From Squalus acanthias (taxonomy: Eukaryota), in NCBI GenBank assembly GCA_030390025.1, contig JASTWF010000033.1, positions 4,218,001 through 4,282,000 of the forward strand: a stretch of DNA of 64,000 bases. The letters run 5' to 3'. Positions within the stretch are counted from its first letter, which is position 1, and every line of letters starts with the position of its first letter. The notes beneath the pieces were generated by a model that ran no database searches, was not told the DNA's origin, and saw only the letters and a program-made list of their open reading frames with translations. A program made the position numbers and the translations under genes. Positions 1 through 56,317 of this stretch are shown piece after piece.

Positions 1-3000
1 TCTGAATGGAGCTGTCTGTGTCTGTGAATTGAGCTTTCAGTATCTGTAAATGGAGCTGTTTGGGTCTTTGAATACAGCTGCCTGTTTCCGTGAATGGAAC
101 TGTCTGTGATGTGAATGGAGCTGTCTGGGTCTGTGAATGGAGCTGTCTGAGTCTGTAAATATAGCTGTCTGTATCTGTGAATGGAACTGTCTGTGTCTTT
201 GAATGAGCTGTCTGGATCTGTGAAATGTGTTGTCTGTGTCTAAAAATGGAGTTGTCTTGGTCTGTGAATAGAGTTGTCTGACGTTGTTAATGGAGCTGAA
301 TGGGTCTGTGACCTGAGCTTTCAGAGTCTTTGAAGTCAGCCGTCTGGATCTTTGAATGGAGCTGTCGGTGTGTCTGAAATGAGCTTTTTGAGTTTCTGAA
401 TACAGATGTCTGGGTCTGTCAAATTAATTGTCTAAATCTGTTCGTGAAATGAGCTGTCTGTTTTTTTTCAAATTTGCTTTCCATGTCTGTGAATGTTGGT
501 GTCTGAGTCTGTGAATGGATCTGTCTAGGTCAGTGAATGGAGCTGTCTGAGACTGTGAATGGAGCTGTCTGAGTCTGTGAATGGAGCTATCTGGGTCTGT
601 GAATGGAGCTGTCTGGGTTTCTGAATGGAACTGTCTGGGTCTGTGAATGGAGCTGTCTGAGTCAGTGAATGGAGCTGTCTGTGTCTGTGAATGGAGCTGT
701 CTGAGTCTGTGAATGGAGCTGCCTGGGTCTGTGAATGAAGGTGTCTGGGTCTGTGAATGGAGCTGTCTGAGTCTGTGAATGGAGCTGTCTGGGTCTGTGA
801 ATGGAGCTGTCTGGGTCTGTGAATGGTGCTGTCTGTGTCTGTGAATGGAGCTGTCTGGGTCTGTGAATGGAGCTGTCTGGGTCTGTGAATGGAGCTGTCT
901 GGGTCTGTGAATGGATCTGTCTGGGTCTGTGAATGAATCTTTCTGGGTCTGTGAATAGAGCTGTCTGGATCTGTGAATGGAGCTGTCTGGGTCTGTGAAT
1001 GGTGCTGTCTGAGTCTGTGAATGGAGCTGTCTGGGTCTGTGAATGGAGCTGTCTGGGTCTTTGAATGGAGCTGTCTGGGTCTGTGAATGGATCTGTCTGG
1101 GTCTGTGAATGGATCTTTCTGGGTCTGTGAATAGAGCTGTCTGGATCTGTGAATGGAGCTGTCTGGGTCTGTGAATGGAGCTGTCTGAATCTGTAATTGG
1201 AGCTGTCTGGGTCTGTAAATGGAGCTGTTTGGGTCTGTGAATGGAGCTGTCTGAGTCTGTGAATGGAACTGTCTGGGTCCGTGAATGGAGCTGCCTGGGT
1301 CTTTGAATAGAGCTGTCTGGGTCTGTGAATGGAGCTGTCTGAATCTGTAAATGGTGCTGTCTGTGTCTGTGACTGGAGCTGTCTGTGTCTGTGAATGAAC
1401 TGTCTGGGTCTGTTATTGGAGCTGTTTGAGTCTGTGAATGGAGCTGTCTGTGTCTGTGAATGGAGCTGTCTGAGTCTGTGAATGGAGCTGTCTGGGTCTG
1501 TGAATGGAGCTGTCTGGGTCTGTGAATGGTGCTGTCTGAGTCTGTGAATGGAGCTGTCTGGGTCTGTGAATGGAGCTGTCTGGGTCTGTGAATGGTGCTG
1601 TCTGAGTCTGTGAATGGAGCTGTCTGGGTCTGTGAATGGAGCGGTCTGGGTCTGTGAATGGAGCTGTCTGGGTCTGTGAATGGATCTGTCTGGGTCTGTG
1701 AATGGATCTTTCTGGGTCTGTGAATAGAGCTGTCTGGATCTGTGAAATAAACTTTCGGAGTCTGTGAATGGAGCTGTCTGAGTCTCTGAAATGAACTTTC
1801 TGAGTCTGTAAATGGAGCAATCTGGGTCTGTAAATGGAGCTGTTTGGGTCTGTGAATGGAGCTGTCTGGGTCTGTGAATGGAGCTGTCTGAATCTGTAAT
1901 TGGAGCTGTCTGGGTCTGTAAATGGAGCTGTTTTGGTCTGTGAATGGAGCTGTCTGTGTCTGTGAATGGAGCTGACTGTGTCTGTGAATGGAGCTGTCTG
2001 AGTCTGTGAATGGAGCCATCTGTGCCTGTGAATGAGCTATCTGGGTCTGCGAATGTAGCTGTCTGGGTCTGTGAATGGAGCCATATGTGTCTGTGAATGA
2101 GCTGTCTGGGTCTGTAAATGGAGCTGTTTGGGTCTGTGAATGGTGCTGTCTCTGTCTGTGAATGGAGCTGTTTGTTCTCTGAATGGAGCTTTCTGAGTCT
2201 GTGAATGGAGCTGTCTGAGTCTGTGAATGGAGCTGTCTGGGTCTGTGAATGGAGTTGCCTGAGTCTGTGAATGGAGTTGTTTGGGTTTGTGAATGGAACT
2301 GTTTGGGTCTGTGAATGGAGCTGTCTGGGCCTGTGAATGGAGCTGTCTGAGTCTGTGAATGGAACTGTCTGGGTCCGTGAATGGAGCTGCCTGGGTCTGT
2401 GAATAGAGCTGTCTGGGTCTGTGAATGGAGCTGTCTGAATCTGTAAATGGTTCTGTCTGGGTCTGTGAATGGAGCTGTCTGGATCTGTAAATGGTGCTGT
2501 CTGAGTCTGTGAATGGAGCTCTCTGATTCTGAGAATGGAGCTTTCTGAGTCTGTAAATGGAGATGTCTGGATCTGTTAATGGAGCTGTTTGGGTCCTTGA
2601 ATGGAGCTGTCTGTGTCTGTGACTGGAGCTGTCTGTGTCTGTGAATGAACTGTCTGGGTCTGTAAATGGAGCTGTCTGGATCTGTGAATGGCACTGTCTG
2701 TGTCTGTGAATGAGCTGTCTTTGATCTGTGAAATGTGCTTTCTGGGTCTGAAAATGCTGTTCTCTGGGTCTGTGAATAGAGCTGTCTGACGTTGTTAATG
2801 GAGCTGTCTGGGTCTGTGACCTGAGCTTTCAGAGTCTTTGAAGTCAGCCGTCTGTATCTTTGAATGGAGCAGCATGAGTGTCTGAAATGAGCTTTTTGAA
2901 TTTCTGAATGGAGATGTCTGGGTCTGTCAAATGAATTGTCTGAATCTGTTCGTGAAATGAGCTGTCTGTTTTTTTCAAATTAGCTATCCATGTCTGTGAA

Positions 3001-6000
3001 TGTTGCTGTCTGAGTCTGTAAATGAAACTGTCTTGATCTGTGAATGGAGCTGTCTGGGTCTGTGAATGGAACTGTCTTGGTCTGTGAATGGAGCTGTCTG
3101 AGTCTGTGAATGGAGCTGTCTGGGTCTCGGAATGGAACTGTCTGGGTCTGTGAATGGAGCTGACTGAGTATGTGAATGGAGCTGTTTGAGTCTCTGAATG
3201 GAACTGTCTGTGTCTGTGAATGGTGCTATCTAGATCTCTGAAATGAACTTTGAGTCTGTAAATGGAGCTGTCTAGGTCTGCAAATGGAGCTGTTTGGGTC
3301 TGTGAATGGAGCTGTCTGGGTCTGTGAATGGAGCTGTCTGAGTCTGTAAATGGAGCTGTCTTGGTCTGTAAATGGAGCTGTTTGGGTCTGTGAATGGAGC
3401 TGTCTGAGTCTGTGAATGGAGCTGTCTGAGTCTGTGAATGGAGCTGTCTGTGTCTGTAAATGGAGCTGTTTGGGTCTGTAAATGGAGCTGTCTGGGTCTG
3501 TGAATGGAGCTGCCAGAGTATGTAAATGGAGCTGACTCGGTCTGTGAATGCAGCTTTCTGGGTCTGTGAAAGAAGCTGTCTAGGTCTGTGAATGGAGCTG
3601 TCTATGTCTGTGAATGGAGCTGCCAGAGTCTGTAAATGGAGCTGTCTGTGTCTGTGAATGCAGATGTCTGGGTCTGTGAATGGAGCTATCTGTATCTGTG
3701 AATGGAGCTGTCTGAGTCTCTGAATGGGGATGTCTAGTTCTGTGAATGGAGCTGTCTGGGTCTGTGACAGAAGCTGTCTTGGTCTGTGAATGGATCTGTC
3801 TGGGTCTGTGAATGGAGCTATCTTGGTCTGTGAATGGAGCTGCGAGAGTATGTGAATGGAGCTGTCTGGGTCTGTGAAATTAGCTTTCTGGGTCTGTGAT
3901 TGGCATTGTCTGGGTCTGTGAATGCATCGTTCTGGGTCTGTGAATGGAGCTGTCTGGGTCTGTGAATTGTGATGTCAGAGTCTGTGAATTGAGCTGACTG
4001 AGTCTGTGCAATGAGTTGTCTGAGTCTGTGAATGGAGCTGCATGCGTCTGTGAATTGAGCTTTCTGGGTCTGTAAATGGAGCTGTCTGGGTCTGTAAATG
4101 TAGGTGTTTGGGTATGTAAATGGAGCTGTTTGAGTCTCTGATGGAGCTGTCTGTGTCTGTGAATAGAGCTGTCTGGATCTGTGAAATAAACTTTCGGAGT
4201 CTGTGAATGGAGCTGTCTGAGTCTGTGAATGGAGCTGTCTGGGTCTGAAAATGGAGCTGTTTGGGTCTGTGAATGGAGCTGTCTGTGTCTGTGAATGGAG
4301 CTGTCTGAGTTTGAGAATGGAGCTGTCTGGGTCTGTAAATGGAGCTGTTTGGGTCTGTGAATGGAGCTGTCTGTGCCTGTGAATGAGCTGTCCGGGTCTG
4401 TGAATGTAGCTGTCTGGGTCTGTGAATGGAGCCATATGTGTCTGTGAATAAGCTGTCTGGGTCTGTAAATGGAGCTGTTTGGGTCTGTGAATGGTGCTGT
4501 CTCTGTCTGTGAATGGAGCTGTTTATTCTCTGAATGGAGCTTTCTGAGTCTGTGAATGGAGCTGTCTGGGTCTGTGAATGGAGTTGTCTGAGTCTGTGAA
4601 TGGAATTGTTCGGGTCTGTGAATGGAGCTGTCTGGGCCTGTGAATGGAGCTGTCTGGTTCTGTGAATGGAGCTGTCTGGGTCTGTGATTGGCATTGTCTG
4701 GGTCTGTGAATGCATCTTTCTGGGTCTGTGAATGGAGCTGTCTGGGTCTGTGCAATGAGTTGTCTGAGTCTGTGAATGGAGCTGCATGGGTCTGTGAATT
4801 GAGCTTTCTGGGTCTGTAAATGAAGCTGTCTGGGTCTGTAAATGTAGGTGTTTGGGTATGTAAATGGAGCTGTTTGAGTCTCTGATGGAGCTGTCTGTGT
4901 CTGTGAATGGAGCTGTCTGGGTCTGTGCAATGAGTTGTCTGAGTCTGTGAATGGAGCTGTCTGAATCTGTAAATGGTGCTGTCTGGGTCTGTGAATGGAG
5001 CTGTCTCGATCTGTAAATGGTGCTGTCTGAGTCTGTGAATGGAGCTCTCTGATTCTGAGAATGGAGCTTTCTGAGTCTGTAAATGGAGATGTCTGGATCT
5101 GTTAATGGAGCTGTTTGGGTCCTTGAATGGAGCTGTCTGTGTCTGTGACTGGAGCTGTCTGGATCTGTGAATGGAGCTGCCTGTGTCTGTGAATGAACTG
5201 TCTGGGTCTGTGATTGGAGCTGTTTGAGTCTGTGAATGGAGGTATCTGTGTCTGTGGATGAGCTGTCTGGGACTGTAAATTGCGCTGTCTGGGTCTGTGA
5301 ATGGAGCTGTCTGAGTCTGTGAATGGAGCTGTCTGGGTCTCTGAATGGAACTGTCTGGGTCTGTGAATGGAGCTGACTGAGTCTGTGAATGGAGCTGTCT
5401 GTGTCTGTAAATGGAGCTGTTTGGGTCTGTAAATGGAGCTGTCTGGGTCTGTGAATGGAGCTGCCAGAGTATGTAAATGGAGCTGACTCGGTCTGTGAAT
5501 GGAGCTGTCTGGGTCTGTGAAAGAAGCTGTCTAGGTCTGTGAATGGAGCTGTCTATGTCTGTGAATGGAGCTGTTTGGGTCTGTGAATGGAGCTGTCTGA
5601 ATCTGTAAATGGTGCTGTCTGGGTCTGTGAATGGAGCTGTCTGGATCTGTAAATGGTGCTGTCTGAGTCTGTGAATGGAGCTCTCTGATTCTGAGAATGG
5701 AGCTTTCTGAGTCTGTAAATGGAGATGTCTGGATCTGTTAATGGAGCTGTTTGGGTCCTTGAATGGAGCTGTCTGTGTCTGTGACTGGAGCTGTCTGGAT
5801 CTGTGAATGGAGCTGCCTGTGTCTGTGAATGAACTGTCTGGGTCTGTGATTGGAGCTGTTTGAGTCTGTGAATGGAGGTATCTGTGTCTGTGGATGAGCT
5901 GTCTGGGACTGTAAATTGCGCTGTCTGGGTCTGTGAATGGAGCTGTCTGAGTCTGTGAATGGAGCTGTCTGGGTCTCTGAATGGAACTGTCTGGGTCTGT

Positions 6001-8162
6001 GAATGGAGCTGACTGAGTCTGTGAATGGAGCTGTCTGAGTCTGTGAATGGAGCTGTCTGTGTCTGTAAATGGAGCTGTTTGGGTCTGTAAATGGAGCTGT
6101 CTGGGTCTGTGAATGGAGCTGCCAGAGTATGTAAATGGAGCTGACTCGGTCTGTGAATGGAGCTGTCTGGGTCTGTGAAAGAAGCTGTCTAGGTCTGTGA
6201 ATGGAGCTGTCTATGTCCGTGAATGGAGCTGTTTGGGTCTGTGAATGGAGCTGTCTGGGTCTGTGAATGGAGCTGTCTGAGTCTGTAAATGGAGCTGTCT
6301 TGGTCTGTAAATGGAGCTGTTTGGGTCTGTGAATGGAGCTATCTTGGTCTGTGAATGGAGCTGCGAGAGTATGTGAATGGAGCTGTCTGGGTCTGTGAAA
6401 TTAGCTTTCTGGGTCTGTGATTGGCATTGTCTGGGTCTGTGAATGCATCTTTCTGGGTCTGTGAATGGAGCTGTCTGGGTCTGTGCAATGAGTTGTCTGA
6501 GTCTGTGAATGGAGCTGCATGGGTCTGTGAATTGAGCTTTCTGGGTCTGTAAATGGAGCTGTCTGGGTCTGTAAATGTAGGTGTTTGGGTATGTAAATGG
6601 AGCTGTTTGAGTCTCTGATGGAGCTGTCTGTGTCTGTGAATGGAGCTGTCTGGGTCTGTGCAATGAGTTGTCTGAGTCTGTGAATGGAGCTGTCTGAATC
6701 TGTAAATGGTGCTGTCTGGGTCTGTGAATGGAGCTGTCTGGATCTGTAAATGGCGCTGTCTGAGTCTGTGAATGGAGCTCTCTGATTCTGAGAATGGAGC
6801 TTTCTGAGTCTGTAAATGGAGATGTCTGGATCTGTTAATGGAGCTGTTTGGGTCCTTGAATGGAGCTGTCTGTGTCTGTGACTGGAGCTGTCTGGATCTG
6901 TGAATGGAGCTGCCTGTGTCTGTGAATGAACTGTCTGGGTCTGTGATTGGAGCTGTTTGAGTCTGTGAATGGAGGTATCTGTGTCTGTGGATGAGCTGTC
7001 TGGGACTGTAAATTGCGCTGTCTGGGTCTGTGAATGGAGCTGTCTGAGTCTGTGAATGGAGCTGTCTGGGTCTCTGAATGGAACTGTCTGGGTCTGTGAA
7101 TGGAGCTGACTGAGTCTGTGAATGGAGCTGTCTGAGTCTGTGAATGGAGCTGTCTGTGTCTGTAAATGGAGCTGTTTGGGTCTGTAAATGGAGCTGTCTG
7201 GGTCTGTGAATGGAGCTGACTCGGTCTGTGAATGGAGCTGTCTGGGTCTGTGAAAGAAGCTGTCTAGGTCTGTGAATGGAGCTGTCTATGTCTGTGAATG
7301 GAGCTGTTTGGGTCTGTGAATGGAGCTGTCTGGGTCTGTGAATGGAGCTGTCTGAGTCTGTAAATGGAGCTGTCTTGGTCTGTAAATGGAGCTGTTTGGG
7401 TCTGTGAATGGAGCTATCTTGGTCTGTGAATGGAGCTGCGAGAGTATGTGAATGGAGCTGTCTGGGTCTGTGAAATTAGCTTTCTGGGTCTGTGATTGGC
7501 ATTGTCTGGTTCTGTGAATGCATCTTTCTGGGTCTGTGAATGGAGCTGTCTGGGTCTGTGCAATGAGTTGTCTGAGTCTGTGAATGGAGCTGCATGGGTC
7601 TGTGAATTGAGCTTTCTGGGTCTGTAAATGGAGCTGTCTGGGTCTGTAAATGTAGGTGTTTGGGTATGTAAATGGAGCTGTTTGAGTCTCTGATGGAGCT
7701 GTCTGTGTCTGTGAATGGAGCTGCCAGTGTCTGTAAATGGAGCTGACTCGGTATGTGAATGGAGCTGTCTGGGTCTGTGAAAGAAGCTGTCTGGGTCTGT
7801 GAATCGAGCGGTCTGGATTTGTGAATGGAACTGTCTGTGTCTGTGAATGCAGCTGTCTGGGTCTGTGAATGGTGCTGTCTATGTCTGTGAATGGAGCTGC
7901 GAGAGTCTGTGAATGGAGCTGTCTGTGTCTGTGAATGGAGCTGTCTGTGTCTGTGAATTGAGCTGTCTGAGTCTGTGAATGGATCTGTCTGTGTCTGTGA
8001 ATGGAGCTGTCTGGATCTGTGAAATGAACATTCAGAGTCTGTGAATGGAGCTGTCTGGGTCTGTGAATGGAACTGTCTGTGTCTGTGAATGTTGCTATCT
8101 AGCTCTCTGAAATGAACTTTCTGATTCTGTGAATGGAGCTCTCTGAATCTGTGAATGAATCT

Positions 8163-8254
8163 AACAACAGAAAACGCTGGAAAACTCTGCAGGCCAGGCA
8201 CAATCCGTGGAGAGAGAAACAGAGTTAACGTTTCCGGTCGAAGACCTATCGTCA
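8163..8254 (-). mobile_element. ~92-bp Penelope-like terminal fragment with partial hammerhead motif inserted in satellite (copy 1)
   Basis: Non-satellite sequence AACAACAGAAAACGCTGG...GAGTTAACGTTTCCGGTCGAAGACCTATCGTCA, homologous to 36101-36190 at the end of the Penelope-like element. Confidence 0.75.
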
Positions 8255-11200
8255 ATGGAGCTGTCTGGGTCTGTAAATGGAGCTGTCTGGGTCTGTAAAT
8301 GGAGCTGCTTTGGTCGATGTAATCAGGTGTCTGTGTCTTTGAATGGAGCTGTCTGGATCTGTGAAATGTGCTGTCTGTGTCTGTGAAATCAGCTGCCTGG
8401 GTCCGTGAATGAAGCTGACTGAGTCTGTGAATGGAGCTGTCTGGGTCTGTGAATGGAGCTGTCTGGGTCTGTAAATGGAGCTGTCTGAGTCTGTGAATCG
8501 AGCTGTCTGAGTCTGTGAATGGAGCTGTCTGGGTCTGTGAATGGAGCTGTCTGTGTCTGTGAATGGAGCTGTCTGGGTCTGTGAATGGAGCTGTCAGGGT
8601 CTGTGAATGGAGCTGTCTGGGTCTGTGAATGGAGCTGACTGAGTCTGTGAATGGTGATGTTTGGGTCTGTGAATGGAGCCATCTGTGTCTGTGAATGAGC
8701 TGTCTGGATCTGTGAATGGAGCTGTCTGGGTCTGTAAATGGAGCTGTCTGGCTCTGTGAATGGAACTCTCTGTGTCTGTGAATGAGCTGTCTGGATCTGT
8801 GAAATGTGCTGTCTGGGTCTGAAAATGGAGTTGTCTGTGTCTGTGGCCTGAGCTTTCAGATTCTTTGAAGTCAGCCATCTGGATCTTTTAATGGAGCTGT
8901 CTGAGTGTCTGAAATGAGCTTTCTGAGTCTCTGAATGGAGATGTCTGTGTCTGTCAAATGAATTGTCTGAATCTGTTCGTGAAATGAGCTGTCTGTTTTT
9001 TTCAAATAAGCTTTCCATGTCTGTGAATGGAGCTGTCTGGGTTTGTGAATGGTGTTGTCTTGGTCTGTGAATGGATCAGTCTGAGTCTGTGAATGGATCT
9101 GTCTGGGTCTGTGAATGGAGCTGTCTGGGTCTGTGACTGGAGCTGTCTGAGTCTGTGAATGGAGTTGTCTGGGTCGGTGAATCGAGCTGTCTGAGTCTGT
9201 GAATGGAGCTGTCTGAGTCTGTGAATGGAGCTGTCTGTGTCTGTGAATGGAGCTGTCTGGGTCTTTGAATGAAGCTGTCTGGGCCTGTGAATGGAGCTGT
9301 CTGGGTCTGTGAATGGAGCTGACTGGGTCTGTAAATGGAGCTGTCTGGCTCTGTGAATGGAACTCTCTGTGTCTGTGAATGAGCTGTCTGGATCTGTGAA
9401 ATGTGCTGTCTGGGTCTGAAAATGGAGTTGTCTGGGTCTGTGAATAGAGCTGCCTGACGTTGTTAATGGAGCTGTCTGGGTCTGTGACCTGAGCTTTCAG
9501 AGTCTTTGAAGTCAGCCATCTGGATCTTTGAATGGAGCTGTCTGAGTGTCTGATATGAGCTTTCTGAGTCTCTGAATGGAGATGTCTTTGTCTGTCAAAT
9601 GAATTGTCTGAATCTGTTCGTGAAATGAGCTGTCTGTTTTTTTCAAATTAGCTATCCATGTCGGTGAATGTTGCTGTCTGAGTCTGTGAATGGATGTGTC
9701 TGTGTCTGTGAATGGACCTGTCTGAGTCTGTGAATGGAGCTGTCTGAGTCTGTAAATGAAACTGTCTTGGTCTGTGATTGGAGCTGTCTGAGTCTGTGAA
9801 TGGAGCTGTCTGGGTCTGTGAATGGAGCTATCTGGGTCTGTGAATGGAGCTGTCTGGGTCTCTGAATGAAACTGTCTTGGTCTCTGAATGGAGCTGTCTG
9901 AGTCCGTGAATGGAGCTGTCTGGGTCTCTGAATGGAACTGTCTGGGTCTGTGAATGGAGCTGACTGAGTCTGTGAATGGAGCTGTTTGAGTCTGTGAATG
10001 GAGCTGTCTGTGTCTGTAAATGGAGCTGTCTAGGTCTGTAAATGGAGCTGTTTGGGTCTGTGAATGGAGCTGTCTGGGTCTGTGAATGGAGCTGTCTGAG
10101 TCTGTAAATGGAGCTGTCTTGGTCTGTAAATGGAGCTGTTTGGGTCTGTGAATGGAGCTGTCTGAGTCTGTGAATGGAGCTGTCTGAGTCTGTGAATGGA
10201 GCTGTCTGTGTCTGTAAATGGAGCTGTTTGGGTCTGTAAATGGAGCTGTCTGGGTCTGTGAATGGAGCTGCCAGAGTATGTAAATGGAGCTGACTCGGTC
10301 TGTGAATGGAGCTTTCTGGGTCTGTGAAAGAAGCTGTCTAGGTCTGTGAATGGAGCTGTCTATGTCTGTGAATGCAGATGTCTGGGTCTGTGAATGGAGC
10401 TATCTGTATCTGTGAATGGAGCTGTCTGAGTCTCTGAATGGGGATGTCTAGTTCTGTGAATGGAGCTGTCTGGGTCTGTGACAGAAGCTGTCTTGGTCTG
10501 TGAATGGATCTGTCTGTGTCTGTGAATGGAGCTATCTTGGTCTGTGAATGGAGCTGCGAGAGTATGTGAATGGAGCTGTCTGGGTCTGTGAAATTAGCTT
10601 TCTGGGTCTGTGATTGGCATTGTCTGGGTCTGTGAATGCATCGTTCTGGGTCTGTGAATGGAGCTGTCTGGGTCTGTGAATTGTGATGTCAGAGTCTGTG
10701 AATTGAGCTGACTGAGTCTGTGAATGGAGCTGCATGGGTCTGTAAATGGAGCTGTCTGGGTCTGTAAATGTAGGTGTTTGGGTATGTAAATGGAGCTGTT
10801 TGAGTCTCTGATGGAGCTGTCTGTGTCTGTGAATGGAGCTGTCTGGGTCTGTGCAATGAGTTGTCTGAGTCTGTGAATGGAGCTGTCTGAATCTGTAAAT
10901 GGTGCTGTCTGGGTCTGTGAATGGAGCTGTCTGGATCTGTAAATGGTGCTGTCTGAGTCTGTGAATGGAGCTCTCTGATTCTGAGAATGGAGCTTTCTGA
11001 GTCTGTAAATGGAGATGTCTGGATCTGTTAATAGAGCTGTTTGGGTCCTTGAATGGAGCTGTCTGTGTCTGTGACTGGAGCTGTCTGGATCTGTGAATGG
11101 AGCTGCCTGTGTCTGTGAATGAACTGTCTGGGTCTGTGATTGGAGCTGTTTGAGTCTGTGAATGGAGGTATCTGTGTCTGTGGATGAGCTGTCTGGGACT

Positions 11201-12376
11201 GTAAATTGCGCTGTCTGGGTCTGTGAATGGAGCTGTCTGAGTCTGTGAATGGAGCTGTCTGGGTCTCTGAATGGAACTGTCTGGGTCTGTGAATGGAGCT
11301 GACTGAGTCTGTGAATGGAGCTGTCTGAGTCTGTGAATGGAGCTGTCTGTGTCTGTAAATGGAGCTGTTTGGGTCTGTAAATGGAGCTGTCTGGGTCTGT
11401 GAATGGAGCTGCCAGAGTATGTAAATGGAGCTGACTCGGTCTGTGAATGGAGCTGTCTGGGTCTGTGAAAGAAGCTGTCTAGGTCTGTGAATGGAGCTGT
11501 CTATGTCTGTGAATGGAGCTGTTTGGGTCTGTGAATGGAGCTGTCTGGGTCTGTGAATGGAGCTGTCTGAGTCTGTAAATGGAGCTGTCTTGGTCTGTAA
11601 ATGGAGCTGTTTGGGTCTGTGAATGGAGCTATCTTGGTCTGTGAATGGAGCTGCGAGAGTATGTGAATGGAGCTGTCTGGGTCTGTGAAATTAGCTTTCT
11701 GGGTCTGTGATTGGCATTGTCTGGGTCTGTGAATGCATCTTTCTGGGTCTGTGAATGGAGCTGTCTGGGTCTGTGCAATGAGTTGTCTGAGTCTGTGAAT
11801 GGAGCTGCATGGGTCTGTGAATTGAGCTTTCTGGGTCTGTAAATGGAGCTGTCTGGTCTGTAAATGTAGGTGTTTGGGTATGTAAATGGAGCTGTTTGAG
11901 TCTCTGATGGAGCTGTCTGTGTCTGTGAATGGAGCTGCCAGTGTCTGTAAATGGAGCTGACTCGGTATGTGAATGGAGCTGTCTGGGTCTGTGAAAGAAG
12001 CTGTCTGGGTCTGTGAATCGAGCTGTCTGGATTTGTGAATGGAACTGTCTGTGTCTGTGAATGCAGCTGTCTGGGTCTGTGAATGGTGCTGTCTATGTCT
12101 GTGAATGGAGCTGCGAGAGTCTGTGAATGGAGCTGTCTGTGTCTGTGAATGGAGCTGTCTGTGTCTGTGAATTGAGCTGTCTGAGTCTGTGAATGGATCT
12201 GTCTGTGTCTGTGAATGGAGCTGTCTGGATCTGTGAAATGAACATTCAGAGTCTGTGAATGGAGCTGTCTGGGTCTGTGAATGGAACTGTCTGTGTCTGT
12301 GAATGTTGCTATCTAGCTCTCTGAAATGAACTTTCTGATTCTGTGAATGGAGCTCTCTGAATCTGTGAATGAATCT

Positions 12377-12468
12377 AACAACAGAAAACGCTGGAAAACT
12401 CTGCAGGCCAGGCACAATCCGTGGAGAGAGAAACAGAGTTAACGTTTCCGGTCGAAGACCTATCGTCA
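12377..12468 (-). mobile_element. Second copy of the Penelope-like terminal fragment in the satellite
   Basis: Same sequence as 8163-8254 with the same flanking monomers, offset 4214 bp. Confidence 0.75.
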
Positions 12469-15400
12469 ATGGAGCTGTCTGGGTCTGTAAATGGAGCTGT
12501 CTGGGTCTGTAAATGGAGCTGTCTTGGTCGATGTAATCAGCTGTCTGTGTCTTTGAATGGAGCTGTCTGGATCTGTGAAATGTGCTGTCTGTGTCTGTGA
12601 AATCAGCTGCCTGGGTCCGTGAATGAAGCTGACTGAGTCTGTGAATGGAGCTGTCTGGGTCTGTGAATGGAGCTGTCTGGGTCTGTAAATGGAGCTGTCT
12701 GAGTCTGTGAATCGAGCTGTCTGAGTCTGTGAATGGAGCTGTCTGGGTCTGTGAATGGAGCTGTCTGTGTCTGTGAATGGAGCTGTCTGGGTCTGTGAAT
12801 GGAGCTGTCAGGGTCTGTGAATGGAGCTGTCTGGGTCTGTGAATGGAGCTGACTGAGTCTGTGAATGGTGATGTTTGGGTCTGTGAATGGAGCCATCTGT
12901 GTCTGTGAATGAGCTGTCTGGATCTGTGAATGGAGCTGTCTGGGTCTGTAAATGGAGCTGTCTGGCTCTGTGAATGGAACTCTCTGTGTCTGTGAATGAG
13001 CTGTCTGGATCTGTGAAATGTGCTGTCTGGGTCTGAAAATGGAGTTGTCTGTGTCTGTGACCTGAGCTTTCAGATTCTTTGAAGTCAGCCATCTGGATCT
13101 TTGAATAGAGCTGTCTGAGTGTCTGAAATGAGCTTTCTGAGTCTCTGAATGGAGATGTCTGTGTCTGTCAAATGAATTGTCTGAATCTGTTCGTGAAATG
13201 AGCTGTCTGTTTTTTTCAAATAAGCTTTCCATGTCTGTGAATGGAGCTGTCTGGGTTTGTGAATGGTGTTGTCTTGGTCTGTGAATGGATCAGTCTGAGT
13301 CTGTGAATGGATCTGTCTGGGTCTGTGAATGGAGCTGTCTGGGTCTGTGACTGGAGCTGTCTGAGTCTGTGAATGGAGTTGTCTGGGTCGGTGAATCGAG
13401 CTGTCTGAGTCTGTGAATGGAGCTGTCTGAGTCTGTGAATGGAGCTGTCTGTGTCTGTGAATGGAGCTGTCTGGGTCTTTGAATGAAGCTGTCTGGGCCT
13501 GTGAATGGAGCTGTCTGGGTCTGTGAATGGAGCTGACTGGGTCTGTAAATGGAGCTGTCTGGCTCTGTGAATGGAACTCTCTGTGTCTGTGAATGAGCTG
13601 TCTGGATCTGTGAAATGTGCAGTCTGGGTCTGAAAATGGAGTTGTCTGGGTCTGTGAATAGAGCTGCCTGACGTTGTTAATGGAGCTGTCTGGGTCTGTG
13701 ACCTGAGCTTTCAGAGTCTTTGAAGTCAGCCATCTGGATCTTTGAATGGAGCTGTCTGAGTGTCTGATATGAGCTTTCTGAGTCTCTGAATGGAGATGTC
13801 TTTGTCTGTCAAATGAATTGTCTGAATCTGTTCGTGAAATGAGCTGTCTGTTTTTTTCAAATTAGCTATCCATGTCGGTGAATGTTGCTGTCTGAGTCTG
13901 TGAATGGATGTGTCTGTGTCTGTGAATGGACCTGTCTGAGTCTGTGAATGGAGCTGTCTGAGTCTGTAAATGAAACTGTCTTGGTCTGTGATTGGAGCTG
14001 TCTGAGTCTGTGAATGGAGCTGTCTGGGTCTGTGAATGGAGCTATCTGGGTCTGTGAATGGAGCTGTCTGGGTCTCTGAATGAAACTGTCTTGGTCTCTG
14101 AATGGAGCTGTCTGAGTCCGTGAATGGAGCTGTCTGGGTCTCTGAATGGAACTGTCTGGGTCTGTGAATGGAGCTGACTGAGTCTGTGAATGGAGCTGTT
14201 TGAGTCTGTGAATGGAGCTGTCTGTGTCTGTAAATGGAGCTGTCTAGGTCTGTAAATGGAGCTGTTTGGGTCTGTGAATGGAGCTGTCTGGGTCTGTGAA
14301 TGGAGCTGTCTGGGTCTGAAAATGGAGTTGTCTGTGTCTGTGACCTGAGCTTTCAGATTCTTTGAAGTCAGCCATCTGGATCTTTGAATAGAGCTGTCTG
14401 AGTGTCTGAAATGATCTTTCTGAGTCTCTGAATGGAGATGTCTGTGTCTGTCAAATGAATTGTCTGAATCTGTTCGTGAAATGAGCTGTCTGTTTTTTTC
14501 AAATAAGCTTTCCATGTCTGTGAATGGAGCTGTCTGGGTTTGTGAATGGTGTTGTCTTGGTCTGTGAATGGATCAGTCTGAGTCTGTGAATGGATCTGTC
14601 TGGGTCTGTGAATGGAGCTGTCTGGGTCTGTGACTGGAGCTGTCTGAGTCTGTGAATGGAGTTGTCTGGGTCGGTGAATCGAGCTGTCTGAGTCTGTGAA
14701 TGGAGCTGTCTGAGTCTGTGAATGGAGCTGTCTGTGTCTGTGAATGGAGCTGTCTGGGTCTTTGAATGAAGCTGTCTGGGCCTGTGAATGGAGCTGTCTG
14801 GGTCTGTGAATGGAGCTGACTGGGTCTGTAAATGGAGCTGTCTGGCTCTGTGAATGGAACTCTCTGTGTCTGTGAATGAGCTGTCTGGATCTGTGAAATG
14901 TGCAGTCTGGGTCTGAAAATGGAGTTGTCTGGGTCTGTGAATAGAGCTGCCTGACGTTGTTAATGGAGCTGTCTGGGTCTGTGACCTGAGCTTTCAGAGT
15001 CTTTGAAGTCAGCCATCTGGATCTTTGAATGGAGCTGTCTGAGTGTCTGATATGAGCTTTCTGAGTCTCTGAATGGAGATGTCTTTGTCTGTCAAATGAA
15101 TTGTCTGAATCTGTTCGTGAAATGAGCTGTCTGTTTTTTTCAAATTAGCTATCCATGTCGGTGAATGTTGCTGTCTGAGTCTGTGAATGGATGTGTCTGT
15201 GTCTGTGAATGGACCTGTCTGAGTCTGTGAATGGAGCTGTCTGAGTCTGTAAATGAAACTGTCTTGGTCTGTGATTGGAGCTGTCTGAGTCTGTGAATGG
15301 AGCTGTCTGGGTCTGTGAATGGAGCTATCTGGGTCTGTGAATGGAGCTGTCTGGGTCTCTGAATGAAACTGTCTTGGTCTCTGAATGGAGCTGTCTGAGT

Positions 15401-15973
15401 CCGTGAATGGAGCTGTCTGGGTCTCTGAATGGAACTGTCTGGGTCTGTGAATGGAGCTGACTGAGTCTGTGAATGGAGCTGTTTGAGTCTGTGAATGGAG
15501 CTGTCTGTGTCTGTAAATGGAGCTGTCTAGGTCTGTAAATGGAGCTGTTTGGGTCTGTGAATGGAGCTGTCTGGGTCTGTGAATGGAGCTGTCTGAGTCT
15601 GTAAATGGAGCTGTCTTGGTCTGTAAATGGAGCTGTTTGGGTCTGTGAATGGAGCTGTCTGAGTCTGTGAATGGAGCTGTCTGAGTCTGTGAATGGAGCT
15701 GTCTGTGTCTGTAAATGGAGCTGTTTGGGTCTGTAAATGGAGCTGTCTGGGTCTGTGAATGGAGCTGCCAGAGTATGTAAATGGAGCTGACTCGGTCTGT
15801 GAATGGAGCTTTCTGGGTCTGTGAAAGAAGCTGTCTAGGTCTGTGAATGGAGCTGTCTATGTCTGTGAATGCAGATGTCTGGGTCTGTGAATGGAGCTAT
15901 CTGTATCTGTGAATGGAGCTGTCTGAGTCTCTGAATGGGGATGTCTAGTTCTGTGAATGGAGCTGTCTGGGTC

Positions 15974-16173
15974 NNNNNNNNNNNNNNNNNNNNNNNNNNN
16001 NNNNNNNNNNNNNNNNNNNNNNNNNNNNNNNNNNNNNNNNNNNNNNNNNNNNNNNNNNNNNNNNNNNNNNNNNNNNNNNNNNNNNNNNNNNNNNNNNNNN
16101 NNNNNNNNNNNNNNNNNNNNNNNNNNNNNNNNNNNNNNNNNNNNNNNNNNNNNNNNNNNNNNNNNNNNNNNNN
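15974..16173. other. Assembly gap (200 N)
   Basis: Run of exactly 200 N. The round number suggests a scaffolding gap of unknown true size. Confidence 0.99.
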
Positions 16174-19100
16174 GGTGATGGGAAGGAGCTGAGGATATTA
16201 GGTGGGGTGGTGAGGAGCTGAGGATATTAGGTGCGGTGGGGTGGAGCTGAGGATATTAGGTTGGGTGGGGAGGAGCTGAGGATATTAGGTGGGGTGGGGA
16301 GGAGCTGAGGATATTAGATGGGGTGGGGAGGAGCTGAGGATTTTAGGTCGGGTGGGGAGGAGCTGAGGATATTAGATGGGGTTGGGAGGAGCTGAGGATA
16401 TTAGGTGAGGTGGGAAGGAGCTGACGATATTAGGTGGGGTGGGGAGGAGCTGAGAATTTTAGGTCGGGTGGGGAGGAGCTGCGGATATTAGGTGGGGTGG
16501 GGAGGAGCTGAGGATATTAGGTGGGGTGGGGAGGAGCTGAGGATATTAGGTGGGGTGGGGAGGAGCTGAGGATATTAGGTGTGGTGGGGAGGAGCTGAGG
16601 GTATTAGGTGGGGTGGGGAGGAGCTGAGGATATTAGGTGGAGTGGGGAGGAGCTGAGGATATTAGGTGGGGTGAGGAGGAGCTGACGATATTAGGTGGGG
16701 TGGGGAGGAGCTGTGGAAATTAGGTGGGGTGGGTATGAGCTGAGGGTATTAGGTGGGGTGGGGAGGAGCTGAGGATATTAGGTGGAGTGGGGAGGAGCTG
16801 AGGATATTAGGTGGGGTGGGGAGGAGCTGAGGATATTAGGTGAGGTGGGGAGGAACTGAGGATATTAGGTGGGGTGGGAAGGAGCTGAGGATATTAGGTG
16901 GGGTGGTGAGGAGCTGAGGATATTAGGTGCGGTGGGGTGGAGCTGAGGATATTAGGTTGGGTGGGGAGGAGCTGAGGATATTAGGTGGGGTGGGGAGGAG
17001 CTGAGGATATTAGATGGGGTGGGGAAGAGCTGAGGATTTTAGGTCGGGTGGGGAGGAGCTGAGAATATTAGATGGGGTTGGGAGGAGCTGAGGATATTAG
17101 GTGGGGTGGGAAGGAGCTGACGATATTAGGTGGGGTGGGGAGGAGCTGAGAATTTTAGGTCGGGTGGGGAGGAGCTGCGGATATTAGGTGGGGTGGGGAG
17201 GAGCTGAGGATATTAGGTGGAATGGGGAGGAGCTGAGGATATTAGGTGGGGTGGGGAGGAGCTGAGGATATTGGGTGGGGTGGGGAGGAGCTGAGGATAT
17301 TTAGTGGGGTGGGGAGGAGCTGAGGATATTAGGTGGGGTGGGGAGGAGCTGAGGATATTACGTGGGTTGGGATGACCTAAGGATATTAGCTGGTGTGGGG
17401 AGGAGCAGAGGATATTAGGTGGTGTGGGGAGGAGCTGAGGCATATTAGGTGGGTGGGGAGGAGCTGAGGATATTAGGTGGGATGGGAAGGAGCTGAGGAT
17501 ATTAGGTGGGGTGGTGAGGAGCTGAGGATATTAGGTGCGGTGGGGTGGAGCTGAGGATATTAGGTTGGGTGGGGAGGAGCTGAGGATATTAGGTGGGGTG
17601 GGGAGGAGCTGAGGATATTAGATGGGGTGGGGAGGAGCTGAGGATTTTAGGTCGTGGGGGGAGGAGCTGAGGATATTAGATGGGGTTGGGAGGAGCTGAG
17701 GATATTAGGTGAGGTGGGAAGGAGCTGACGATATTAGGTGGGGTGGGGAGGAGCTGAGAATTTAGGTCGGGTGGGGAGGAGCTGCGGATATTAGGTGGGG
17801 TGGGGAGGAGCTGAGGATATTAGGTGGGGTGGGGAGGAGCTGAGGATATTAGGTGGGGTGGGGAGGAGCTGAGGATATTAGGTGGGGTGGGGAGGAGCTG
17901 AGGGTATTAGGTGGGGTGGGGAGGAGCTGAGGATATTAAGTGGGGTGGGGAGGAGCTGAGTATATTAGGTGGGGTGGGGAGGAGCTGAGCATATTAGGTG
18001 GGTTGGGAATGACCTAAGGATATTAGCTGGTGTGGGGAGGAGCAGAGGATATTAGGTGGTGTGGGGAGGAGCTGAGGATATTAGGTGGGGTGGGGAGGAG
18101 CTGAGGATATTAGGTGGGGTGGGGAGGAGCTGAGGATATTAGGTGGGGTGGGGAAGAGCTGAGGATATTAGGTTGGGTGGGGAGGAGCTGAGGATATTAG
18201 GTGGGGTGGGGAGGAGCTGAGGATATTAGATGGGGTGGGGAGGAGTTGAGGATTTTAGGTCGGGTGGGGAGGAGCTGAGGATATTAGATGGGGTTGGGAG
18301 GAGCTGAGGATATTAGGTGGGGTGGGAAGGAGCTGACGATATTAGGTGGGGTGGGGAGGAGCTGAGAATTTTAGGTCGGGTGTGGAGGAGCAGCAGATAT
18401 TAGGTGGGGTGGGGAGGAGCTGAGGATATTTAGTGGGGTGGGGAGGAGCTGAGGATATTAGGTGGGGTGGGGAGGAGCTGAGGATATTACGTGGGTTGGG
18501 AATGACCTAAGGATATTAGCTGGTGTGGGGAGGAGCAGAGGATATTAGGTGGTGTGGGGAGGAGCTGAGCATATTAAGTGAGGTGGGGAGGAACTGAGGA
18601 TATTAGGTGTGATGGGAAGGAGCTGAGGATATTAGGTGGGGTGGTGAGGAGCTGAGGATATTAGGTGCGTTGGGGTGGAGCCGAGGATATTAGGTTGGGT
18701 GGGGAGGAGCTGAGGATATTAGGTGGGGTGGGGAGGAGCTGAGGATATTAGATGGGGTGGGGAGGAGCTGAGGATTTTAGGTCGTGGGGGGAGGAGCTGA
18801 GGATATTAGATGGGGTTGGGAGGAGCTGAGGATATTAGGTGAGGTGGGAAGGAGCTGACGATATTAGGTGTGGTGGGGAGGAGCTGAGAATTTTAGGTCG
18901 GGTGGGGAGGAGCTGCGGATATTAGGTGGGGTGGGGAGGAGCTGAGGATATTAGGTGGGGTGGGGAGGAGCTGAGGATATTAGGTGGGGTGGGGAGGAGC
19001 TGAGGATATTAGGTGGGGTGGGGAGGAGCTGAGGGTATTAGGTGGGGTGGGGAGGAGCTGAGGATATTAAGTGGGGTGGGGAGGAGCTGAGTATATTAGG

Positions 19101-22100
19101 TGGGGTGGGGAGGAGCTGAGCATATTAGGTGGGTTGGGAATGACCTAAGGATATTAGCTGGTGTGGGGAGGAGCAGAGGATATTAGGTGGTGTGGGGAGG
19201 AGCTGAGGATATTAGGTGGGGTGGGGAGGAGCTGAGGATATTAGGTGGGGTGGGGAGGAGCTGAGGATATTAGGTGGGGTGGGGGAAGAGCTGAGGATAT
19301 TAGGTTGGGTGGGGAGGAGCTGAGGATATTAGGTGGGGTGGGGAGGAGCTGAGGATATTAGATGGGGTGGGGAGGAGTTGAGGATTTTAGGTCGGGTGGG
19401 GAGGAGCTGAGGATATTAGATGGGGTTGGGAGGAGCTGAGGATATTAGGTGGGGTGGGAAGGAGCTGACGATATTAGGTGGGGTGGGGAGGAGCTGAGAA
19501 TTTTAGGTCGGGTGTGGAGGAGCAGCGGATATTAGGTGGGGTGGGGAGGAGCTGAGGATATTAGGTGGGGTGGGGAGGAGCTGAGGATATTAGGTGGGGT
19601 GGGGAGGAGCTGAGGATATTAGGTGGGGTGGGGAGGAGCTGAGGATATTAGGTGGGGTGGGGAGGAGCTTAGGATATTAGGTGGGGTGGGGAGGAGCTGA
19701 GGATATTAGGTGGGGTGGGGAGGAGCTGAGGGTATTAGGAGGGGTGGGGAGCAGCTGAGGATATTAGGTGGAGTGTGGAGGAGCTGAGGATATTAGGTGG
19801 GGTGTGGAGGAGCTGAGGATATTAGGTGGAGTGGGGAGGAGCTGAGGATATTAGGTGGGGTGGGGAGGAGCTGAGGATATTAGGTGAGGTGGGGAGGAAC
19901 TGAGGATATTAGGTGGGGTGGGAAGGAGCTGAGGATATTAGGTGGGGTGGTGAGGAGCTGAGGATATTAGGTGCGGTGGGGTGGAGCTGAGGATATTAGG
20001 TTGGGTGGGGAGGAGCTGAGGATATTAGGTGGGGTGGGGAGGAGCTGAGGATATTAGATGGGGTGGGGAAGAGCTGAGGATTTTAGGTCGGGTGGGGAGG
20101 AGCTGAGAATATTAGATGGGGTTGGGAGGAGCTGAGGATATTAGGTGGGGTGGGAAGGAGCTGACGATATTAGGTGGGGTGGGGAGGAGCTGAGAATTTT
20201 AGGTCGGGTGGGGAGGAGCTGCGGATATTAGGTGGGGTGGGGAGGAGCTGAGGATATTAGGTGGAATGGGGAGGAGCTGAGGATATTAGGTGGGGTGGGG
20301 AGGAGCTGAGGATATCGGGTGGGGTGGGGAGGAGCTGAGGATATTAGTGGGGTGGGGAGGAGCTGAGGATATTAGGTGGGGTGGGGAGGAGCTGAGGATA
20401 TTACGTGGGTTGGGAATGACCTAAGGATATTAGCTGGTGTGGGGAGGAGCAGAGGATATTAGGTGGTGTGGGGAGGAGCTGAGCATATTAAGTGAGGTGG
20501 GGAGGAACTGAGGATATTAGGTGTGATGGGAAGGAGCTGAGGATATTAGGTGGGGTGGTGAGGAGCTGAGGATATTAGGTGCGTTGGGGTGGAGCTGAGG
20601 ATATTAGGTTGGGTGGGGAGGAGCTGAGGATATTAGGTGGGGTGGGGAGGAGCTGAGGATATTAGATGGGGTGGGGAGGAGCTGAGGATTTTAGGTCGGG
20701 TGGGGAGGAGCTGAGGATATTAGATGGGGTTGGGAGGAGCTGAGGATATTAGGTGAGGTGGGAAGGAGCTGACGATATTAGGTGTGGTGGGGAGGAGCTG
20801 AGAATTTTAGGTCGGGTGGGGAGGAGCTGCGGATATTAGGTGGGGTGGGGAGGAGCTGAGGATATTAGGTGGGGTGGGGAGGAGCTGAGGATATTAGGTG
20901 GGGTGGGGAGGAGCTGAGGATATTAGGTGGGGTGGGGAGGAGCTGAGGGTATTAGGTGGGGTGGGGAGGAGCTGAGGATATTAGTGGGGTGGGGAGGAGC
21001 TGAGTATATTAGGTGGGGTGGGGAGGAGCTGAGCATATTAGGTGGGTTGGGAATGACCTAAGGATATTAGCTGGTGTGGGGAGGAGCAGAGGATATTAGG
21101 TGGTGTGGGGAGGAGCTGAGGATATTAGGTGGGGTGGGGAGGAGCTGAGGATATTAGGTGGGGTGGGGAGGAGCTGAGGATATTAGGTGGGGTGGGGAAG
21201 AGCTGAGGATATTAGGTTGGGTGGGGAGGAGCTGAGGATATTAGGTGGGGTGGGGAGGAGCTGAGGATATTAGATGGGGTGGGGAGGAGTTGAGGATTTT
21301 AGGTCGGGTGGGGAGGAGCTGAGGATATTAGATGGGGTTGGGAGGAGCTGAGGATATTAGGTGGGGTGGGAAGGAGCTGAGAATTTTAGGTCGGGTGTGG
21401 AGGAGCAGCAGATATTAGGTGGGGTGGGGAGGAGCTGAGGATATTAGGTGGGGTGGGGAGGAGCTGAGGATATTAGGTGGGGTGGGGAGGAGCTGAGGAT
21501 ATTAGGCGGGGTGGGGAGGAGCTGAGGATATTAGGTGGGGTGGGGAGGAGCTTAGGATATTAGGTGGGGTGGGGAGGAGCTGAGGGTATTAGGTGGGGTG
21601 GGGAGCAGCTGAGGATATTAGGTGGAGTGTGGAGGAGCTGAGGATATTAGGTGGGGTGTGGAGGAGCTGAGGATATTAGGTGGGGTGAGGAGGAGCTGAC
21701 GATATTAGGTGGGGTGCGGAGGAGCTGAGGATATTAGGTGGGGTGAGGAGGAGCTGACGATATTAGGTGGGGTGCGGAGGAGCTGTGGAAATTAGGTGGG
21801 GTGGGTATGAGCTGAGGGTATTAGGTGGGGTGGGGAGGAGCTGAGGATATTAGGTGTGGTGGGGAGGAGCTGAGGATATTAGGTGAGGTGGGGAGGAACT
21901 GAGGATATTAGGTGTGATGGGAAGGAGCTGAGGATATTAGGTGGGGTGGTGCGGAGCTGAGGATATTAGGTGCGGTGGGGTGGAGCTGAGGATATTAGGT
22001 TGGGTGGGGAGGAGCTGAGGATATTAGGTGGGGTGGGGAGGAGCTGAGGATATTAGATGGGGTGGGAAGAGCTGAGGATTTTAGGTCGGGTGGGGAGGAG

Positions 22101-32222: not shown

Positions 32223-32296
32223 CTGTAAAACACAAAAGGGAAAAGAGACTGGAAATTACTGATCAAACATTCTCGGTGTCTGAACCCAGGCAGTCG

Positions 32297-36094: not shown

Positions 36095-37921
36095 TTAAGA
36101 AAAACAATGCTGAAAACCCTCAGCGGGCCAGGCAGCATCTTTGCAGATAGAAACAGAGTCAACATTTGAGATCGATGACCTTTCATCAGAACTGGAAGAT
36201 ATCAGAGATTAATAGTATTAAAGCAATGATAGAGTCAGAGAAAAGTGCGGATGCATTAGGAAAGAGCAAAGTCTGTGATTGGCTGGAGGGCAGGAGTGAT
36301 TCAATGACAAAAGGGATGATGGTGCAAGGCGAATGGGACAATTAAAGAAACAGAAGATGGGTCTAGAGGAGGTGTAAATGGTTACAGCATAATAACAAGG
36401 GGGAGGGGCAGTAGGGCACATGTGGCAGAGATGCGGATACGGTAGCATAGTAGCTATGTTACTGGACTAGTAATCCAGCGGCTTAGACTAATAGTACGAG
36501 ACGAGAGCTCAAATCCCACCACAAGCAGTTGTGGAATTTAAATTCAATTAAAATAATCTCGAATTTAAAAACTAGTATTGGTAATGGTGACAATAAAACT
36601 GGCGGATTGTCGTAAAAACTCATCTGGTTCACTAATGCCCTTTAGAAGAAGGAAATCTGCCGTCCTTACCCGGTCTGGCCTATATGTATCTCCAGACCCA
36701 CAGCAATGTGATTGAATCTTAACTGCCCTCTGAAATAGCCCACCTTCTCGAGAGCAATTAGGGATGGTCAATAAATGTCGGCCTTGCCAGCGACGCCCAC
36801 ATCCCAAGAACGAATAAAAAAAAAAGCTGGGTACACCCCAGATGTTTGGACCAGTCCGCTAGCTGTGTACCGGGTTGGACACCACAAAACCCCAGCCCAC
36901 AGCTCCTCCACTCCCAGTGGCTCTGTGGAACCATCTTCCATTGCCAGCGCATGTCGTTCGAGAAAACGGGAGCGGAGGTTATGATCTGAAGCATTTATAC
37001 ATAGTGTTGTGTCCGGAAGGCAATAAACTGCCTAACCGAAAAATACGGTGCTGTTCCTCATTGAGTTTAAAATGGGAATAGTGCAGGATGCCGAGAACAG
37101 TGAGTTCAGAGTGAGAGTGGGAGTGCAGAATTAAAGTGGCAAGTGACCTGAAGCTCAGGATCACACTTGCGGACTGAACGGAGGCGTTCAGCGAAGCAAT
37201 TACTCAATCTGCGTTTAGTCCACCCAATATACAGGAGACTGGATCGTGGGCAGCGAATACGATATACTGAATAGGAAGAAGTACAAGTAAATTAGTCTTT
37301 CACGTGGATGGACTGTTTGGGGCCCTGGCTCTTGGGATGGAAAAGGGGGAAATGGCATCCGTTGCATCTCCTGCACTTGCACAGGAAGGTGCCAGGGAAG
37401 GGGAGCAGATGTTAGGGGTGACGGAAGAGTGGATCAGGGTGTTGCGAGAGCCGGGGGATGGGAGGTCAGGGGATGATATGTTTGTTGGTGGCCTTAGCTG
37501 TACATGACGGAAATGGCAGAGGATAATCCGTTGAATGTGAAGGCTGGTGCACTGGAAGCTGAGGACAAAGGAAACCCTATCTGGGTTCTAGCCGGGAGGG
37601 CAAGTGGTGACGGGAGCAATATAGGATAGACACGGTCGAGGGCCCTGTCAATTACAATGGAGGTGAATACTCGGCTGAGAAAATATGAAGAGATTTCAGA
37701 AGCACTGATGTGCAAGGTGGCATCGTCAGAATGTATGCAACGGTGGTGGAGAAACTTTGAGAATAGAATAGAGCCCGTCCAGGAAGCTGGGTGGGAGGAA
37801 GTCTACTCAAGATTCCTGTGGGAGTTGGTGGGATCATAGTAGATATTGGTGGACAGCCTAAACCCTGAAATGGAGATCGAGAAGTCAAGGAAGTGATGGG
37901 AAGACCACTGTGGTTCACCAT
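36095..37921 (-). mobile_element. Penelope-like retroelement relic (RT C-terminus, GIY-YIG endonuclease, terminal hammerhead-like motif)
   Basis: Minus strand encodes degenerate LLYIG.TKRRL (~37203-37238) and LNEEQHRIFRLGSLLPSGHN (ORF 36979-37164), typical of the PLE GIY-YIG C-terminus. Terminal CTGATGA-hairpin motif at 36157-36193. Confidence 0.75.
36424..36825 (+). mobile_element. tRNA-derived SINE with LINE-derived 3' tail
   Basis: Box A-like TAGCATAGTAG (~36443), box B-like GAGCTCAAATCCC (~36505), poly(A) end. The last ~85 nt match the LINE 3' end at 46589-46670. Confidence 0.8.
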
Positions 37922-41679: not shown

Positions 41680-41746
41680 CAGGAACACCAATGACGGCAA
41701 TGATCATGTAGCATATTTTCTCCATATGTTGAATTGGTCGATGCAT
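41680..41746 (-). CDS. GPR139-like: GPCR coding exon 1 (MHRPIQHMEKICYMIIAVIGVP)
   Basis: ATG at 41746, 67 nt, ends CCTG|GTAAGT (consensus donor). The phase-1 join G+TG=Val with exon 2 gives a continuous TM1 IIAVIGVPVNLLAIVIL. Intron 32223-41679 (9457 bp), protein 348 aa. Confidence 0.85.
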
Positions 41747-41830: not shown

Positions 41831-41838
41831 CATATATA
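41831..41838 (-). promoter_or_regulatory. Candidate TATA box of the GPCR gene
   Basis: Minus strand GGGTATATATGAAAGG, about 85 nt upstream of the exon 1 ATG, in unique sequence. Confidence 0.5.
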
Positions 41839-56295: not shown

Positions 56296-56317
56296 CAATG
56301 GCCCCTTTAAATTTTCT

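Follow-up and report, generated by a model that had tools for sequence, protein, structure and literature searches.

A 92-bp fragment with the layout of part of a hammerhead ribozyme lies inside a 22-bp satellite in the 64,000-nucleotide stretch of Squalus acanthias DNA analyzed here (the window), and the question raised by this locus is whether the satellite is acquiring a ribozyme or carries a passive piece of a transposon. The 22-bp satellite array occupies positions 3..15973 of the forward strand with approximately 725 monomers at 79% matches (TRF). It is open at the window start and its other end is a 200-N assembly gap at 15974-16173, so that the 16 kb originally ascribed to it is a minimum length. 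The fragment is present twice on the minus strand, at 8163..8254 (copy 1) and 12377..12468 (copy 2), with 92/92 positions identical. Two scans of 1-15973 agree that the insert and its duplicate are the only foreign sequence in the array; low-match runs cover 91 positions at both inserts and at most 12 elsewhere, and an indel-tolerant scan gives scores of 8-10 at the two inserts alone with the next lowest value elsewhere being 15. The insert is scarce among the monomers in the window (2 in approximately 725). The 22-bp satellite appears to be undescribed, with no description of it or of the insert found among the literature matches listed (subscription journals and Repbase/Dfam being outside the coverage) and no matches to four 15-base strings of monomer and insert searched in the literature.

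The remainder of the window contains many further tandem arrays together with decayed LINE-like pieces. Directly after the gap is a very homogeneous 29-bp array (16179-26424, 353 copies, 90% matches) with a GC skew of approximately 0.83, in which quadruplexes are possible on the G-rich strand. An AT-rich 54-bp array at 56316-62239, with other sequence intervening at approximately 58378-59487, contains internal near-palindromic TTGCAA subunits and is traversed by long stop-free frames. A two-exon rhodopsin-family receptor gene (Pfam 7tm_1, E 8e-22) runs on the minus strand from approximately 41746 to 31243, covering approximately 41680-41746 and 31243-32262, with a short exon 1 that has a GT donor, an intron of approximately 9.4 kb and an AG acceptor near 32223. 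A TATA element is located near 41835, and an 18-bp array (42270-43109) lies immediately upstream of the promoter. The intron contains a GC-rich 18/37-bp minisatellite (32651-33008) inside a repeat at approximately 32290-33300 with long inverted-looking ends.

The 22-bp array around the inserts contains a block duplication, with a first copy at 7209..10098 and a second at 11424..14312, separated by an offset of 4,214-4,215 and each containing one insert. The blocks differ at 9 positions in 2,889 bp plus a 1-bp indel (0.3%), and the duplication extends upstream of the first copy to approximately 6325 with a one-monomer shift and 16 differences in 884. Further internal duplications of the array occur at offsets of 1283, 1733, 5290 and 5497. 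The 4.2-kb period is represented by fewer than two copies within the window, and a fixed monomer set recurring several times at one period is not seen there. The array is a patchwork of recent block copies and not a regular higher-order repeat as had been proposed. The difference of 0.3% between the blocks falls in the allelic range and the array ends at a gap, so that the second insert could in principle be an assembly artefact with two haplotypes placed in tandem. This is unlikely given the several other internal duplications at different offsets and the multi-copy status of the insert in public contigs, described below, which is independent of the pair in the window.

The insert is closely related to a dispersed repeat copy located at 36099..36193 on the minus strand (the 36-kb copy). 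The two align at 36106-36188 with 63/83 identical positions (E 3e-11), bearing out the homology to 36101-36190 in the original prediction. An nhmmer search of the window, using a profile built from the insert and the 36-kb copy, matches these three places and nothing else at E ≤ 1. To place the insert within a wider family, contigs of four public runs (X1, X2, X8 and X11, with organism labels A, B, C and E, from four studies and taken from 23 candidate runs) were aligned to 8080-8300 at 90% likeness, placing 10,112, 2,296, 2,128 and 342 records, respectively. The 22-bp satellite is abundant in the contigs of all four organisms. Contig depth is highest over 8208-8239, which indicates a very abundant dispersed family. 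At 8235 this family has A in 96.7-99.7% of the depth, a base that closes helix II of the hammerhead. Behind 8254 the loose ends read GAACTGG in 4/4 runs, corresponding to C3 and the 5' strand of helix I, and the insert is therefore cut one base short of C3. The family core exists in at least two versions that differ at hammerhead position 7, which is U or C in loose ends of X2, X8 and X11; the insert is of the C7 type. The depth, the alternative letters, the loose ends and the 36-kb copy together describe a dispersed high-copy family whose intact members contain a whole minimal hammerhead.

Judged by its sequence, the insert corresponds to the last 92 nt at the 3' end of a repeat that is very abundant and has a Penelope-type minimal hammerhead layout, and it is 5'-truncated at hammerhead position 3/4, and the assignment to Penelope would follow from this motif layout. 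No reading frame of Penelope type occurs in the window beside either copy, and the 36-kb copy is without a long frame. A pattern of 25 insert bases has no matches in metagenome contigs. The other end of the insert is reached 64 nt past the would-be cut site, at a distance of 85 nt from where helix II starts. The insert and the 36-kb copy end at matching places (profile positions 2-4), in two examples only. The spacing of 85 nt, compared with 111-118 nt in Anolis, fits an insertion that would have been primed from a nick in satellite DNA and shortened at its 5' end. The flanks contain a candidate target-site duplication with its left arm at 8154..8162 (monomer positions 3/4-11) and its right arm at 8254..8262, both on the forward strand, in which 7/9 letters are alike, monomer positions 4-11 are present on both sides and A8254 is assignable to the insert or the satellite. 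This candidate duplication of 8-9 bp could also be a deletion of 13-14 bp, because a tandem array gives the same register in both cases.

The hammerhead remnant extends over 8223..8254 on the minus strand and can be numbered position by position. The core segment U4-G5-A6-C7-G8-A9 (8254-8249) is followed by one unpaired U (8248), by helix II with 4/5 pairs and a 3-nt loop (8247-8235), and by G12-A13-A14-A15.1 (8234-8231). There is no loop III, and C15.2-G16.2-U16.1-U17 completes the palindrome AACGUU (8232-8227), after which the cut would fall behind 8227, with the 3' strand of helix I at 8226-8223. This numbering confirms the minus-strand motif of the original prediction, namely a partial core, a GGTC/GACC helix II and GAAAC followed by AACGTT, and likewise its statement that C3 is replaced and the 5' strand of helix I is missing. 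The sequence GAAA, the palindrome and the NUH triplet GUU are all intact in the insert, but the other three of the four sequence features of an active minimal hammerhead are lacking. Position 3 is a U contributed by the satellite and faces G8 in both inserts, with no Watson-Crick 3-8 pair. Satellite DNA stands in for the 5' strand of helix I and provides 0/4 pairs both in cis and in a homodimer, in place of a helix of 4-5 bp, and the pairing probability of helix I is 0.0 in 3/3 folds. The base of helix II is an A10.1 × G11.1 mismatch, a defect absent from the original description, and leaves the helix unclosed although the unpaired base after A9 is present.

The 36-kb copy is better preserved, with C3 and a 3-8 pair within a complete C3-A9 core, helix I at 4/4 in the GUU register and helix II at 5/5, but it has C in place of G12 and from its sequence is expected to be inactive too. 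The cleavage register is GUU and not UUA, the latter being ruled out by the 4/4 helix I pairs that the GUU register gives in this copy. A strict hammerhead descriptor, run without an intact positive control, has no matches in the window. Relaxed for the three defects of the insert, the descriptor matches both inserts and nothing else in the window; relaxed at G12 it has a sole match at 36189, and each relaxed form has 0 matches in 30 Markov-resampled windows. Because the relaxations were picked after the sequences had been seen, these matches are evidence of non-randomness and not of function. A search with hammerhead models, suggested as a check on the original prediction, returned no Rfam hammerhead at E ≤ 5 in the window or at E ≤ 10 in either 191-bp stretch. 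Minimal hammerheads may lie outside the Rfam models, since the better-preserved 36-kb copy is likewise unmatched.

Two further elements are seen around the motif. Just downstream of the cut site, a splice-acceptor-like stretch with a branch-like TTRAC and a pyrimidine tract is present at 8195-8230 and 36128-36165 on the minus strand, ending in AG in the 36-kb copy and in GG in the insert; in Drosophila Penelope an intron end is placed at helix I (PMC4209133). In the 36-kb copy a 31-codon frame begins at an ATG within the hammerhead core and continues through the element tail (36090-36186, minus strand), and the reading frame of the Anolis element likewise starts at the hammerhead (PMC11167929).

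Folding and the known behavior of related ribozymes indicate that the insert should not cleave, either alone or as a homodimer. The original doubt about cis activity agrees with the combination of helix I at 0/4, U3-G8 and A10.1 × G11.1. The homodimer has no hammerhead fold by folding calculations, with helix III possible at 4/4. The satellite was considered as a substitute strand for helix I and gives no productive pairing, the best duplex with the upstream satellite reaching -5.6 kcal/mol and lying away from the core. In the Anolis Penelope hammerhead a single C3G or G8C change abolishes cleavage and a protein is also needed (PMC11167929), and minimal hammerheads with an intact motif do not cleave as monomers and cleave at a low level as dimers (PMC4209133). 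A mismatch at 10.1-11.1 is tolerated by some natural hammerheads (PMC3088659), and no hammerhead without helix I is among the variants in the text of that source. The literature search turned up no direct measurement of C3U. No RNA run is listed among those with the insert, and four runs guessed to be RNA contain only 0.12-0.18 of the words, results with no bearing on transcription.

The original prediction took the insert to be an early stage of a ribozyme-bearing satellite unit; on such a reading the unit would cleave as a dimer or regain activity. U4-A9, G12-A15.1, four helix II pairs and the palindrome all survive, helix III can form at 4/4 in the homodimer, the insert has been amplified, and a 10.1-11.1 mismatch is tolerated by some natural hammerheads. 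Against this, helix I is absent in every register tried and is impossible in the monomer or the homodimer (0/4), and one variant damages helix II further. The copies lie 4.2 kb apart, compared with units of 150-450 bp in active repeats (PMC7229834), and the age and drift of the variants argue against the term early. Such a unit is therefore extremely unlikely.

The retained half of the motif could in principle act in another way. The insert keeps the cut half, GAAAC-GUU/AACU, so that an intact family transcript might base-pair with a satellite transcript, by way of helix I and the palindrome, and cut it in trans. Penelope activity would in that case extend to the processing of satellite RNA. 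When the 36-kb copy is the partner, 13/13 pairs of helices I-III are possible, and the substrate half matches the family with no listed difference over 8202-8234, in a count dominated by dispersed copies. The forced trans fold has an energy of -2.2 kcal/mol compared with -17.4 kcal/mol for the best dimer fold, approximately 15 higher, for a decayed partner and with tertiary contacts excluded from the calculation. The same substrate is present in any dispersed family transcript, so that the satellite is not singled out, and minimal hammerheads are weak and protein-dependent (PMC4209133, PMC11167929). A role of the insert as a trans substrate is accordingly highly improbable, and the fuller version, in which Penelope-family RNAs cleave in trans, the substrate half is kept across species and the amplification is due to such cutting, is slightly more improbable still.

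The junctions between insert and satellite allow the history of the insert to be followed in other organisms. They are present in contigs of 4/4 runs, each of which bridges at least one junction with 31 letters on each side. Among 32 listed of 14,972 pieces, at least 7 contigs cross the left junction and at least 13 the right, all ungapped. In the pieces listed, contigs bridging the left junction come from X1 (two, depth 55.6 and 200.5), X2 (4.99) and X11 (21.8, with 1 difference in 101). Those bridging the right junction come from X1 (261.7 and 107.9) and X8 (7.62). Shorter flanks are seen in a left contig of X8 (27 letters, depth 93, 1 difference) and a right contig of X2 (30 letters). The right junction is crossed by at least four different contigs in X1 (depth 79-454) and at least five in X2 (5-24).

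In assemblies of this kind a word occurs in one contig only. Separate junction contigs are therefore different variants, and their number exceeds the two alleles of one locus unless the runs pool individuals. Between the listed junction contigs and the window there are 0-15 letter differences; the contigs are known by difference counts and not by letters, and may include variants with a restored C3 or helix I. A junction contig of X2 (contig 22) carries C8245A, which breaks another helix II pair; this change occurs in 11, 1, 1 and 3 contigs of the four runs and is tied to a junction contig in X2 only. Three listed contigs (X2, X8 and X11) match the window over 73-101 bp with 0-1 letter different, indicating that part of the spread is recent. 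Contig depth is not copy number, the library types are unrecorded and the runs may pool individuals. As a guess, the window-like variant has approximately 106-293 copies in X2, 91-244 in X8 and 13-31 in X11, in a Poisson calculation that assumes shotgun runs, a genome of 3.0-4.5 Gb, retention of words seen 2-3 times and a single-copy depth of approximately 0.3-1.7, the X2 contig having only 5 flank letters. Three more runs sharing a study or species label contain 0 of the words, which is not proof of absence.

The junction contigs, occurring under four organism labels and in several variants, support capture and amplification more strongly than the original reading of the window could. The early stage that formed the other part of that prediction is not supported, given identical junctions common to the four labels and contigs lying 0-15 letters from the window. 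The insertion is shared, is probably old and would have been broken from the start. Repeated independent insertions at one favored satellite position would accommodate variants that differ by up to approximately 10%, but independent events would not have the identical 5' truncation base, and the right-junction contigs (at least 13 among the pieces listed) align ungapped; this explanation is very unlikely.

A different route of multiplication accepts the insert as a passenger and has it copied mainly by large gene cassettes composed of satellite and receptor gene rather than by turnover within one array. The two-exon 7TM receptor gene in the window does lie amid several arrays, but the only duplication seen here is internal to the array and the 22-bp array is 15 kb away from the gene. 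As the main route the cassettes are rather unlikely, although they are compatible with within-array turnover and both can apply.

The insert is a passive transposon fragment in a satellite, and the explanation that very probably holds as a whole is a truncated insertion that occurred as a single ancient event, was copied with the array and has no catalysis. A Penelope-type element would have nicked the 22-bp satellite, with reverse transcription beginning at the usual 3' end of the element and stopping after approximately 92 nt, one base short of C3. The fragment would thus never have been a whole ribozyme, as its three defects relative to the family indicate. The identical junction registers under four organism labels suggest that this single insertion predates the split of the sampled organisms. 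The insert would then have become a passenger, copied with its flanking monomers by unequal exchange and block duplication; one recent duplication of 2.9-3.8 kb is seen in the window, and several variants per run are seen in the public contigs. Point changes appear to have piled up irrespective of the hammerhead fold, and the insert would have no catalytic role.

Satellites containing scraps of transposons are already known, as are decayed Penelope hammerheads. A fixed-junction insertion that is common to several species and has many variants is a marker for the turnover and spread of the 22-bp satellite, and the insert could serve as a clade marker. It also provides a negative control for the origin of hammerhead satellites by ribozyme capture, as a hammerhead piece has been captured and amplified with no working ribozyme apparent from modeling. 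Should trans cleavage of satellite RNA by Penelope transcripts prove true, retroelement ribozymes would be connected in a new way to the processing of satellite RNA.

The closest known relatives of the motif are the minimal type I hammerheads (min-HHR) of metazoan Penelope-like elements (Cervera and De la Pena 2014, PMC4209133). The family shares with these the absence of loop III, a palindrome spanning 15.2-16.2, a single unpaired base separating A9 from helix II, a short helix I and many single truncated copies. The insert differs in the loss of C3 and of the helix I 5' strand, in the mismatch at 10.1-11.1 and in its location in a satellite, and the family has A10.1-U11.1 where PMC4209133 calls G10.1-C11.1 highly conserved. 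Sharks do not appear to be named in that paper; the two supplementary files searched do not name them, and supplementary file 1 may hold shark motifs. In PAc, the Poseidon element of Anolis carolinensis, reverse transcription begins at a distance of 111-118 nt from where helix II starts, hammerhead cleavage is unnecessary for insertion and 5'-shortened templates still insert (Frangieh et al. 2024, PMC11167929). PAc insertions stop at a constant short distance past the hammerhead, a pattern that the two examples in the window would fit. Here the distance is 85 nt, and the family is known without a linked reading frame or endonuclease.

Satellite arrays hold multiple transposable element insertions, and parts of such elements can amplify in tandem (review, PMC10048060). 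Unlike the generic pieces in that review, the piece here contains a broken ribozyme motif and is rare among the monomers. The hammerhead satellites of newt, Dolichopoda and Schistosoma, with which the insert had been compared, are non-LTR retrozymes (Cervera and De la Pena 2020, PMC7229834). According to this source each unit of 150-450 bp has a whole canonical ribozyme, the units are transcribed, cleave and circularize, and circular RNA is the presumed source of the tandem copies of active units. What the array has in common with the retrozymes is tandem DNA with a type I hammerhead motif whose helix III region is palindromic. The array described here, by contrast, has a 22-bp unit of other origin with two broken motifs in approximately 725 monomers, each motif minimal and 4.2 kb from its twin. 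The analogy is not supported, as the retrozymes are repeats of whole active units and not fragments captured by an older satellite (PMC7229834).
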